In this document: positions 31,489-44,037 of the stretch, piece after piece
How positions within the stretch are numbered: position 1 is the stretch's first letter
Layout: every line of letters starts with the position of its first letter
Assembly (NCBI GenBank): GCA_963974445.1
Contig: CAXBDI010000001.1
Span: 3,566-67,565 of the forward strand
Reading direction: 5' to 3'
Length of the DNA stretch: 64,000 nucleotides
DNA from: an uncultured Alphaproteobacteria bacterium
Lineage (GTDB): Bacteria; Pseudomonadota; Alphaproteobacteria; Bin95
Position numbers and translations under genes: made by a program
The notes under the pieces: generated by a model
Told to the model about the DNA's origin: nothing
The model's database searches: none
Seen by the model: the letters and a program-made list of their open reading frames with translations, nothing else

Positions 31489-31562
31489 TGGAGGCGCGAA
31501 CCGGAATCGAACCGGTGTACGAGGATTTGCAGTCCTCTGCATCACCACTCTGCCATCGCGCC
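31489..31562 (-). tRNA. tRNA-Cys (GCA)
   Basis: Reverse complement folds as GGCGCGA/TCGCGCC acceptor, short D-arm, anticodon stem GAGGA/TCCTC with loop CTGCAAA (anticodon GCA), T-arm ACCGG-TTCGATT-CCGGT, discriminator U, encoded CCA. Confidence 0.85.
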
Positions 31563-39977: not shown

Positions 39978-41251
39978 GGCGTCACGCCCTGCTTACTGTA
40001 CTTGCCCTCGTTCAGCTTGATCGTCGGATTGCGCCGGCTCAACAGACCGCGCGGCCGCCAGACCATGATCAGCACCATGCCGGCACCGAAGAACAACATG
40101 CGGTATTCCTGCAATCCGCGGAACCACTCCGGCAGGCCGATCATCACGATGGCGGCGATGACCACGCCGACCTGGCTGCCCATGCCACCCAGGACGACGA
40201 TGGCCAGGATGATGGCGCTTTCGATGAAGGTGAAGCTTTCCGGGCTGATGAAGCCCTGGCGCGTCGCGAAGAACGCGCCGGCAAAGCCGCCGAACATCGC
40301 GCCGATGGCGAAGGCCGACAGCTTGACCGTCGTCGGGTTCAACCCCAACGCCCGGCTGGCGATCTCATCCTCGCGCAGTGCCTCCCACGCCCGGCCAATC
40401 GGCAGGCGGCGCAACCGCAACGTCACCCAGTTGGTGATCAGCGCCAGGATCAGGATGAGATAGTAGAGAAAGATCAGCCGGTGCATCGACGAGTATTCCA
40501 GGCCGAAAAACTCGTGGAACGCCGGATCGCCGCCGCGGGAAAACTCCAGCCCGAACAATTCGGGCCGCGGAATGCCGGAAATGCCGTCCGGCCCGCCAGT
40601 GACCTGATACCAGTTCAGCAGGATAATGCGGACCATCTCGCCAAAGCCGAGGGTGACGATGGCCAGATAGTCGCCGCGCAGGCGCAGCACCGGAAATCCC
40701 AGGATCACGCCGAAAGCGCACGCGAACAGACCGGCGAACGGCAGCGCCATCCAGAAGCTGAAGTCCGCGTGCATGGCCAGCATGACGAACGAGTACGCGC
40801 CGATGGCATAGAATGCGACATAGCCAAGGTCGAGCAGTCCGGCCAGCCCGACAACGATGTTCAGGCCCCAGCCCAGCATCACATAGATCAGCACCAGCGT
40901 CGCCAGATCGACCACGGTGCGGTTGGCAAACGGCAGAAATGGCATGACGACCGCGAATGCGATAGCCGCCAGAGCGATCCATGGCATCACGGTATGGAAG
41001 CCCTCGCCCAGGAACGAGACGCCACGCGTGGCGACATTGCCGCTGCCGGCACCCTTACGCGTCCGCCAGGCGATCAGACCCAGCCGGCCGGCGAACACGG
41101 CGACACCGATGCCGGCGACCCACAGCATGCGGGTGTCGAGGGCCAGTCCGTTGCCGGTCTCTACCGTCTGAAAACCGACCAGCGGGATCGCCAACAGGAT
41201 CGCCAGGAAGGCGGTGATGCCGGCTTCCTTCAGCGCGCTCTCGCCCGGCAT
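39974..41251 (-). CDS. livM: Branched-chain amino acid ABC transporter permease LivM
   Basis: ORF to 41620, but first 123 codons are Arg/Gly-rich; ATG 41251 (MPGESALKEAGITAFLAILLAIPLVGF…) overlaps livH stop (ATGA); 425-aa permease. Confidence 0.85.
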   Translation of the reverse strand: MPGESALKEAGITAFLAILLAIPLVGFQTVETGNGLALDTRMLWVAGIGVAVFAGRLGLIAWRTRKGAGSGNVATRGVSFLGEGFHTVMPWIALAAIAFAVVMPFLPFANRTVVDLATLVLIYVMLGWGLNIVVGLAGLLDLGYVAFYAIGAYSFVMLAMHADFSFWMALPFAGLFACAFGVILGFPVLRLRGDYLAIVTLGFGEMVRIILLNWYQVTGGPDGISGIPRPELFGLEFSRGGDPAFHEFFGLEYSSMHRLIFLYYLILILALITNWVTLRLRRLPIGRAWEALREDEIASRALGLNPTTVKLSAFAIGAMFGGFAGAFFATRQGFISPESFTFIESAIILAIVVLGGMGSQVGVVIAAIVMIGLPEWFRGLQEYRMLFFGAGMVLIMVWRPRGLLSRRNPTIKLNEGKYSKQGVTP

Positions 41252-42165
41252 CAGACCTTCTCCACTTCCGGGCGGCCCAGCAGGCCGGTCGGCCGGAACA
41301 GCAGCACCAGCACCAGGATGGCGAAGGCGGCGACGTCTTTGTATTCCGTGGTGAAGTAGCCGGCCCAGAACGCCTCGATCAGGCCGATCAGCAGCCCGCC
41401 CAGCATGGCGCCCGGCAGGGAGCCGATGCCGCCCAGCACCGCCGCCGTGAAGGCTTTCAAGCCCGCGAGGAAGCCGATGAAAAAGTCGATGACGCCATAA
41501 TAGAGCAGGAACATCATGCCGGCGATCGCCGCCAGCCCGGCGCCGGTGACAAAGGTTAGGGAGATGGTGCGGTCGACATCCACCCCCAGCAGCCCGGCCA
41601 TGGTGCGGTCCTGCTCGCACGCCCGTTGCGAGCGGCCGAAACTGGAGCGCTCGATCAGCATCCAGAACGCCACCATCAGCGCCAGCGTCAATCCTACGAT
41701 CAGCATTTGCATGTAGGATAGCACGACGGTGAAGCCGTCCCGCTCCATCAACACCACGCCGCCGGAGATGATCGGTTGCAGCGTCTTCACCCGCGCGCCC
41801 TGCAGCAATTGCACATAGTTCTGCAGGAAGATCGACATGCCGATGGCGCTGATCAGCGGCGCCAGCCGGAACGAGCCGCGCAACGGCCGGTAGGCCAGCC
41901 GCTCCACCGTCCAGCCATAGGCGGCAGTGAAGATCATCGATGTGGCCAGCATGATCAGCAGCAGCAGCGGTACGAACGCGATGCCGGTCGCCGTCACCGC
42001 CAAAAAGGCGATCAGGGCGACGAACGCGCCGATCATGAACACCTCGCCATGGGCAAAGTTGATCATGCCGATAATGCCGTAGACCATGGTGTAGCCGATG
42101 GCGATCAGTCCATAGATCGATCCCAGCGTCAGCCCATTGATCAACTGTTGCGCAAAATACTCCAT
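41251..42165 (-). CDS. livH: Branched-chain amino acid ABC transporter permease LivH
   Basis: 304 aa, MEYFAQQLINGLTLGSIYGLIAIGYTMVYGIIGMINFAHGE… LivH-type N-terminus. Confidence 0.85.
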   Translation of the reverse strand: MEYFAQQLINGLTLGSIYGLIAIGYTMVYGIIGMINFAHGEVFMIGAFVALIAFLAVTATGIAFVPLLLLIMLATSMIFTAAYGWTVERLAYRPLRGSFRLAPLISAIGMSIFLQNYVQLLQGARVKTLQPIISGGVVLMERDGFTVVLSYMQMLIVGLTLALMVAFWMLIERSSFGRSQRACEQDRTMAGLLGVDVDRTISLTFVTGAGLAAIAGMMFLLYYGVIDFFIGFLAGLKAFTAAVLGGIGSLPGAMLGGLLIGLIEAFWAGYFTTEYKDVAAFAILVLVLLFRPTGLLGRPEVEKV

Positions 42166-42420
42166 GGAGCCTTGCGATCCTGTTCTGTATGTGACGGGGC
42201 CGTCGAGGGCCGGATGTTAGTCGGCCGCCGCAACCCTTCTCGATACCGGTGATCCATTAAAGCCTATGGCTGTGCTCCGAAACAGAAAAACAATCGACAC
42301 ACCGCCGTCACGCGCCGGGCTGAGCAAGCCGCCGCACGATATTGTGACCGGATACCCCATACCGTTGCCACCAACCCCTCCCATTTTCAAACCTCGACTA
42401 TTCAAGAGGATCACCCGAGA

Positions 42421-42677
42421 TATGCGGTTACGGCAATTGGCTTTGACGGCGGCTGCCCTGCTTCTGAGCGGGCCGGCGCTCGCCCAGGCGGATGGTTTGA
42501 AGACGGCGGTACGCCGATTGTCGAGGCCAGCACCTTCTATCCGGCAGAAGGCTATCACCAGGACTATTACGTTAAGAACCCGCTCAGTTATCGCTACTAT
42601 CGCTGGGGTTGCGGCCGCAACCAGCGGGTCGAGGAGTTGTGGGGCGAGGCGGCCTATACCGGCATCCCGAATCATTG
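42421..42677 (+). pseudogene. msrA: Remnant of peptide-methionine (S)-S-oxide reductase MsrA (signal peptide fused out of frame to C-terminal ~60 codons)
   Basis: ATG 42421 with strong RBS (AAGAGGA) encodes signal peptide MRLRQLALTAAALLLSGPALAQADG; a different frame from ~42500 encodes …GGTPIVEASTFYPAEGYHQDYYVKNPLSYRYYRWGCGR…*, the conserved MsrA C-terminus; the catalytic N-terminal region (GCFWG) is absent. Confidence 0.4.
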
Positions 42678-42807
42678 ACTCTAGCCAGCCGACTAAAGTG
42701 CTAGCGGCCCGGCGCTCTGTGAGTGGCTTTGCAGCGCGAAATCCGGCTATAGTGCGTGGCTGAAACCCAATTCTTGGACAACGTTCCAACCGGAAGGCAT
42801 CGCCACT

Positions 42808-44037
42808 ATGAACCAGACTGTACAAGCACCGGCTCCCACCGCATCCGGGAAATCCGCGTCGAAATTGCCGCCATTCGACTGGGCCGATCCGCTGATGCTC
42901 TATGGCGGGCTCTCCGAAGACGAGCGCATGACATACGACATGGCCAAGCGCTTCGCCGATGAGGAATTGCTGCCGGGCGTGCTGGAGGCGAACCGCAACC
43001 AGACCTTCGACCGTGGTATTTACAAGAAATTCGGCCAAGCTGGCTTCTTGGGAATCGGGTTGGAGGGCTATGGCTGCCCCGGCGGCACCGCCGTCATGTA
43101 CGGCCTGGTCGCCCGCGCGATTGAGGGCTGCGACAGCGCCTATCGCAGCGCCATGAGCGTGCAGTCGTCACTGGTGATGTATCCGATCTACACCTACGGC
43201 ACCGAAGACCAGAAGAACCGCTTTCTGCCGAAGTTGGCGAGCGGCGAGTTCGTCGGCGCGTTCGGCCTGACCGAGCCGGACCACGGCTCCGACGCTGGCG
43301 GCCTGAAAACCCGGGCGAAGAAGGTGGACGGCGGCTGGCAGTTGAACGGCGCCAAGATGTGGATCACCTCCTCGCCCATCGCCGACGTGTTCGTCATCTG
43401 GGCCAAGGACGACAACAACGACATCCGCGGCTATATCGTCGAACGCGGCATGGAGGGCCTGTCGACGCCGAAGATCGAAGGCAAGTTCTCGCTGCGCGCC
43501 TCGCCGACCGGCGAGATCGTCATGGACAACGTGTTCGTGCCCGATGCGAACTACATGCCGAACACAAAAGGCCTGGGCGGGCCGTTCGGTTGCCTGAACA
43601 AGGCGCGCTACGGCATTTCCTGGGGCGCGATGGGTGCGGCTGAAAGCTGCTTCCATGCCTCCCGCGAATACACCATGGACCGCAAGGCGTTCGGCCGGCC
43701 GCTCGCTGCCAACCAGTTGATCCAGAAGAAACTGGCGGACATGCTGACGGAGATCACGCTGGGGCTGCAAGCCTCGTTGCAACTCGGCCGCCTGATGGAC
43801 GAGGGCGCCGCGGCGCCGGCGGCGATCAGCCTCGTGAAGCGCAACAATTGCTGCAAGGCGCTGGATATCGCCCGGGTCGCCCGCGACATGCATGGCGGCA
43901 ACGGCATCCACGACGAATACCACGTCATCCGCCACATGATGAACCTGGAAGCTGTCAACACCTACGAGGGCACCCAAGACGTGCATGCCCTGATCCTTGG
44001 CCGCGCCATCACCGGCATGCAGGCGTTCGGCGGGTAA
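42808..44037 (+). CDS. gcdH: Glutaryl-CoA dehydrogenase
   Basis: 409 aa; acyl-CoA dehydrogenase fold with GcdH-type motifs (…[19 protein letters not shown]…, …[18 protein letters not shown]…). Confidence 0.85.

Follow-up and report, generated by a model that had tools for sequence, protein, structure and literature searches.

We identify, within a 64,000-nucleotide stretch of DNA from an uncultured marine alphaproteobacterium (the window), a locus between livH and gcdH that we take, with a probability of about 0.93, to be a pseudogene of a stand-alone, Sec-exported MsrA, disabled by one 358-nt internal, frame-shifting deletion. The ancestral gene comprised about 204 codons and encoded a peptide-methionine (S)-S-oxide reductase. 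A single deletion took most of its PMSR domain, together with the cysteine motif, and joined the signal peptide and the residues DGLKTAV out of frame to the end of the gene. No product with reductase activity is possible from such a locus; the residual open reading frame, if expressed, would yield a signal peptide followed by nonsense residues. Two or more diverged marine lineages apparently have the deletion in common, and what is left of the gene is now free of protein-level constraint. The features of the locus are collected in Table 1.

Table 1. Features of the msrA remnant and its surroundings (window coordinates).
Feature	Coordinates	Strand	Basis or remark
livH-type branched-chain amino acid ABC permease, upstream neighbour	41251–42165	−	Pfam PF02653
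Putative Shine-Dalgarno-like AAGAGGA	42404–42410	+	read from sequence; 11 nt 5′ of the ATG
5′ msrA remnant, codons 1–29 and two bases of codon 30	42422–42510	+	translation
Residual 113-codon ORF: signal peptide, 5 native residues, 83 out-of-frame residues	42422–42763	+	translation
Deletion junction, 1-nt ambiguity	42510–42511	+	codon-level comparison with L103, L090 and L085
3′ msrA remnant, last 55 codons and TGA	42511–42678	+	frame differs from that of the start codon
Unusually conserved block: last 39 nt of remnant and 90-nt spacer	42640–42768	+	window versus L082
Glutaryl-CoA dehydrogenase-type acyl-CoA dehydrogenase (gcdH), downstream neighbour	42808–44037	+	Pfam PF02771, PF02770, PF00441

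Direct reading places the msrA start codon, ATG, at 42422–42424. In frame 1 from 42422, the DNA encodes MRLRQLALTAAALLLSGPALAQADGLKTAV, followed by Arg/Ser/Ala-rich residues up to a TGA at 42761–42763. In the frame of 42424, it encodes ...TPIVEASTFYPAEGYHQDYYVKNPLSYRYYRWGCGRNQRVEELWGEAAYTGIPNH (in a fuller reading, ...GGTPIVEASTFYPAEGYHQDYYVKNPLSYRYYRWGCGRNQRVEELWGEAAYTGIPNH) up to a TGA at 42676–42678, and it is here that the last 55 MsrA codons, TPIVEASTFYPAEGYHQDYY...GIPNH, are kept. The two parts together amount to 257 nt, and no single uninterrupted reading frame holds both. The 3′ part has no usable start codon: the sole start-type codon in its frame is a TTG at 42637, 13 codons ahead of the stop, and the nearest upstream in-frame stop is at 42250. 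In the 5′ part, the putative signal peptide MRLRQLALTAAALLLSGPALA/QA is followed by DGLKTAV, the first mature residues. By inspection, this signal peptide has a basic n-region (R2, R4), a hydrophobic core (LALTAAALLLSG), and ALA/QA as a putative signal-peptidase I site. All intact homologues have the same layout, and from this common pattern we infer that the ancestral protein was exported. An earlier note on this DNA had reported the signal-peptide start and the out-of-frame MsrA C terminus, both of which we see; the AAGAGGA that it took for a ribosome-binding site is also present, and its interval for the remnant was one base off at each end.

Judged by profile and sequence searches, the C-terminal part is unmistakably related to MsrA, far beyond chance. 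In particular, Pfam PF01625 matches it with an E-value of 4.3e-6 at profile positions 125–152 of 153, with a fragment score of 27.5, above the gathering score of 23.7; an exhaustive phmmer search returned 1254 matches, all of them MsrA C-termini (best E-value 1.4e-20), with homology starting at the Thr of TPIV; and tblastn with the syntenic intact MsrA as query gave E-values of about 2e-21 to 2e-23. The window copy fails as a full-length PMSR domain above the curated cut-off, the TIGR00401 score being 27.7 bits, where the cut-off is 108.1, with a match confined to positions 120–152 of 153. None of the motifs CFW, GCF, FWG, and FWC is encoded in the six frames of the livH–gcdH interval (42166–42807). 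With the 62-aa fragment as query, an initial search for homologues yielded no more than five partial matches; a profile search recovered the intact family, with many members of 202–213 aa. The nearest member by C-terminus, P0323, is 78% identical and is not syntenic. When the fused remnant was aligned as one sequence, MAFFT placed the signal peptide in mid-MsrA, which we reject as an alignment artefact.

The neighbouring genes livH and gcdH served as synteny anchors: graded relatives were found by a GcdH protein search, and their contigs were then compared. Three contigs (L090, L091, and L092; GcdH 87% identical) have the window's layout, livFGMH(−), msrA(+), gcdH(+), with an intact 203-aa MsrA, and a further one (L085; GcdH 86% identical) carries an intact 205-aa MsrA directly before gcdH. 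TIGR00401 scores the L085 protein at 174 bits and the L090 protein at 180 bits, over a profile span from position 2 or 3 to 152 (cut-off 108). Over the last 55 residues, the window is identical to each of these two proteins at 37 positions (67%), and the two are identical to each other at 40; the C-terminal part is up to 78% identical to other family members. A scan of GTDB genomes (species representatives) with GcdH gave a best identity of 73% among the matches listed, and this msrA stands upstream of gcdH in none of the best relatives among the matches listed. The homology of the retained parts, together with the livH–msrA–gcdH synteny, indicates that the window locus descends from an exported msrA. 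Within the 64-kb window, no other MsrA or MsrB was found.

Alignment to the intact orthologues delimits the deletion to 42510/42511. The family pattern is a signal peptide, AQA(K/Q)ELKTA(V/I/T)FAGGCFWCVESDFD, ..., LG..(I/P)(V/A)TPIV(D/E)A..FYPAE.YHQDYY, and intact members reading ...ELKTAVFAGGCFWC...IVTPIV... fix the junction. Specifically, the window's LKTAV (42497–42511) matches the N-terminus ELKTAVFAGGCFWC of intact members; since LKTAV stands just before FAGGCFWC in intact members, the window's LKTAV is the native N-terminus, while TPIVEAS is native C-terminal MsrA sequence. At the DNA level, TTGAAGACGGCGGT in the window matches CTGAAGACGGCGGT in L103, with 13 of 14 bases matching up to the break (window TTG AAG ACG GCG GT/A CGC CGA versus L103 CTG AAG ACG GCG GTG TTT). 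Relative to the exported family, the window copy lacks the third base of codon 30 through codon 149 (GGCFWCVESDFD...DPTD..GQFCDRG), that is, 119 codons and 1 nt, or 358 nt (3n+1), and the catalytic GGCFWC motif falls within the missing codons 31–149. The retained and lost lengths fit an ancestral gene of about 615 nt. The comparison bears out the proposal, made in the earlier note, that an internal deletion inactivated an exported MsrA with loss of the catalytic region; the sizes given there need revision, since the loss exceeds the roughly 100 codons proposed and the C-terminal remainder is 55 codons and not about 60. An alternative junction at 42492/3, taken from the point at which contig L096 diverges, was rejected, because the native LKTAV that precedes FAGGCFWC lies beyond it and because it would put 'GG' before TPIV in place of the hydrophobic IV/IA conserved in all homologues.

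A contig from another TARA sample, L082, provides a diverged copy of the remnant: its GcdH is 99% identical to that of the window, and its neighbouring genes are about 3–4% diverged. The first base of the contig corresponds to 42502, and its sequence there is GACGGCAGC followed directly by ACGCCGATT, so that N-side sequence abuts the Thr codon; on these nine bases upstream of the break, L082 appears to have the same junction. Between window and L082, gcdH has a dS of 0.12, a dN of 0.0043, and substitutions by codon position of 4:1:31; the carboxyltransferase gene has 0.17, 0.0017, and 4:0:58; and the 55-codon MsrA remnant has 0.19, 0.040, and 3:3:5. The codon-position bias of the two flanking genes pooled (8:1:89) is thus lost in the remnant (Fisher p = 8e-4), and the remnant's dN is about 10–20 times theirs (p = 2e-4). 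In L082, invariant family residues have changed (YHQDYY to YHQDHC, CGR to CRR), and the stop codon has become CGA. These patterns, from 11 substitutions only, point to relaxed constraint on the remnant relative to the neighbouring genes. The NG86 omega in the MsrA frame is 0.2 and not 1, an estimate from the same 11 substitutions (5 nonsynonymous, 6 synonymous; binomial p = 0.017); part of the divergence may predate inactivation, or the constrained 3′ block described below may bias the estimate. All four of the polarisable nonsynonymous changes belong to the L082 branch, the window's branch having none, which leaves some uncertainty in the timing of inactivation relative to the split.

These data also qualify the age of the lesion, which had been called recent. 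At the scale of the clade the word holds: the distance between the remnant and intact orthologues is no greater than its tree position would lead one to expect. The deletion is young relative to the divergence from msrA-keeping relatives. At the strain level it does not hold if L082 shares the junction; on that reading, the flanking dS of 0.12–0.17 means that the deletion predates the split.

The 3′ end of the remnant runs into a block in which the window and L082 differ at 2 of 129 nt. The 129 nt just before it hold 12 differences, and neutral change at the local rate would be expected to give about 12–19 in the block (P ≤ 3e-4). This block may be a candidate gcdH promoter or leader. The 3′ remnant could, in that case, persist through its overlap with gcdH control sequence, a reading that would add to the pseudogene and not replace it. 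We regard this overlap as possible and on balance doubtful: the low divergence just ahead of the gcdH start argues for it, but it is drawn from one diverged comparator only, the block has no Rfam match or fold signal, and a promoter scan of 42100–42900 revealed no sigma-70-like site. Moreover, in the msrA-less relatives L083 and L086, gcdH is expressed from different spacers, which have at most a brief TAGTGCG-like motif in common. Given the outcome of the same scan, and upstream DNA that does not align with that of relatives, the earlier statement that the msrA promoter remains intact is not supported.

Several contigs break off near the junction. A 2-kb TARA contig from the same population (L096) follows the window as far as 42492, with 1 mismatch over 327 nt, after which the two are entirely different, and contig ends cluster nearby: L095 ends at 42485, L096 ends 31 nt past 42492, and L082 begins at 42502. 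A local structural variant or assembly-graph branch could lie near the junction. The abrupt divergence and the clustered ends would be accounted for if the deletion were still polymorphic, with L096 representing the start of an intact allele in the same population. We consider such polymorphism improbable. In particular, the L096 tail (..AQAD-SQRALARAGL) lacks LKTAVFAGGCFW, which an intact allele would require since the window retains LKTAV; the tail matches none of the intact msrA compared; and among the intact MsrA returned from the 90%-clustered protein database, identity to the remnant did not exceed 78%. The tail itself (L096:1-31, reverse complement, corresponding to the window from 42493 onward) consists of 31 unrelated bases, CTCACAGCGGGCTCTGGCGCGCGCAGGACTG.

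The residual 113-codon ORF might instead be a genuine small secreted protein, born of the rearrangement and kept by selection. It has a good start context and a signal peptide, and it is open both in the window and in L082 as far as that contig reaches. Purifying selection on the short ORF is not what we observe, however: the frame-1 omega is 0.8 (10 nonsynonymous versus 5 synonymous changes). The post-junction part is also out of frame, rich in Arg, Ser, and Ala, and without a Pfam family; long spurious ORFs are usual in DNA so GC-rich; and gene callers made no call in the msrA interval in public assemblies. We therefore consider a selected small protein very improbable.

Independent assemblies argue that the pseudogene's lesion is genuine and was not introduced in sequencing or assembly. 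A 70.6-kb TARA Oceans metagenome scaffold (L001), reported from three samples, is 100% identical to the window over 13.2 kb. An independent Logan assembly of a different run (L094) is base-for-base identical over 42166–43021, junction included. These sequences, together with the apparent L082 junction, reproduce the deletion. That a metagenome assembler collapsed a locus which is intact in the genome is scarcely credible, even though the source sequence is a metagenomic scaffold and three contigs (L095, L096, and L082) have an end no more than about 30 nt from the junction region, as an assembly-graph branch could bring about, since no collapse-causing repeat is visible and the L082 remnant carries degenerative changes in addition to the same abutment. 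A scan of JGI metagenomes with a 34-nt conserved spacer pattern gave 0 matches; the lineage seems absent from that collection.

The loss of msrA at this position is not confined to the window. A neighbour-joining GcdH tree places the window and L082 with a clade of 399/400-aa proteins that has no msrA beside gcdH; the msrA-bearing loci (L090, L085, and L084) form the sister clade, and more distant relatives have gcdH in unrelated contexts. On the 5.16-Mb circular contig ctg7572_18x_c, msrA (L084:3248-3870; GcdH 86% identical) is frameshifted at about codon 135 by a 25-bp perfect tandem duplication, AGCGAGCAGCGGCAGTTGGCGGAAG; in its signal peptide, a repeat is expanded in frame by 6 nt. The duplication appears to have disabled msrA independently. 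In two further relatives (L083 and L086; GcdH 86–90% identical), livH and gcdH are adjacent, 368 and 255 bp apart, with no detectable msrA DNA between them (L083:3633-4000, L086:3746-4000); msrA is removed completely in both. We discount a weak MsrA-like match in the L086 spacer (residues 92–106, E-value 0.07–1.4): its position is within the conserved livH leader, stops break it in L083, and it resembles MsrA only in FW..PT. Across the deletion, the L084 duplication, and the loss in L083 and L086, msrA has been disabled or removed at least two times, and probably three. Stepwise gene loss is thus visible in one clade, from an intact gene through internal deletion or frameshift to complete removal.

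Repeated loss, if true, would mean that this clade can dispense with MsrA for periplasmic methionine-sulfoxide repair, and it hints at the same for envelope repair in these uncultured marine bacteria. Tentatively, and as a reading that we hold to be less likely than not, one might suppose that exported MsrA has been lost repeatedly and independently, that periplasmic repair is dispensable, and that the 3′ stump has been taken over as gcdH control sequence.

Among known systems, the retained parts resemble most closely the exported MsrA family (PF01625/TIGR00401; P0323, P0295, P0363, L090, and L085). In that family, the signal peptide ends in ...AQA, as does the window's, and is followed by (E)LKTAV; the tail is TPIV..FYPAEGYHQDYY..YRYYRW.CGRNQRVEELWG..GIP.H, 67–78% identical to the window's. 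The E. coli MsrA is cytoplasmic; it lacks a signal peptide, carries a GCFWG motif, and ends in a different tail that contains Cys. It shares the PMSR domain, and the remnant aligns to its residues 172–198 (tblastn, 52% identity, E-value 0.02); the present family differs from it in its CFWC and in a longer tail, ...CGRNQRVE.LWG. The proteins of Neisseria and H. influenzae are periplasmic or surface fusions of MsrA and MsrB (plus thioredoxin) from host-associated bacteria, whereas the window's ancestor was a single-domain protein, now dead. According to passages of the cited papers, the MsrAB fusions of Neisseria (PilB) and Haemophilus influenzae are exported and repair envelope proteins (PMC9404787, PMC6210582, PMC6372556).

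The locus is an ordinary pseudogene, precisely delimited. Like other bacterial pseudogenes made by deletion or frameshift, it has a functional homologue, a disabling lesion, a lost codon-position bias, and removal in sister lineages; its only particular feature relative to them is that, in a single clade, three different lesions have struck the same gene. In annotation, the appropriate label for the interval is msrA pseudogene, and not small secreted protein or partial MsrA, and no exported MsrA should be ascribed to the lineage at this locus. The pseudogene opens no larger question.

Three further observations concern the remnant and its surroundings. A perfect 16-nt palindrome, GGTTGCGGCCGCAACC, with a NotI site, lies inside the remnant at 42607–42622; as an element it was rejected, being a by-product of the W-G-C-G-R-N codons, broken in L082 by a G-to-C change, and probably coincidental. 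In three contigs whose GcdH is 90% identical by BLASTP (L097–L099), gcdH stands amid transposase genes (DDE_3, IS66, DDE_Tnp_1_assoc) and adjoins neither livH nor the carboxyltransferase gene; in some members of the clade, then, the neighbourhood is rearranged. Of RNA genes, the window yielded just one, a tRNA-Cys (GCA) at 31489–31562 on the minus strand.
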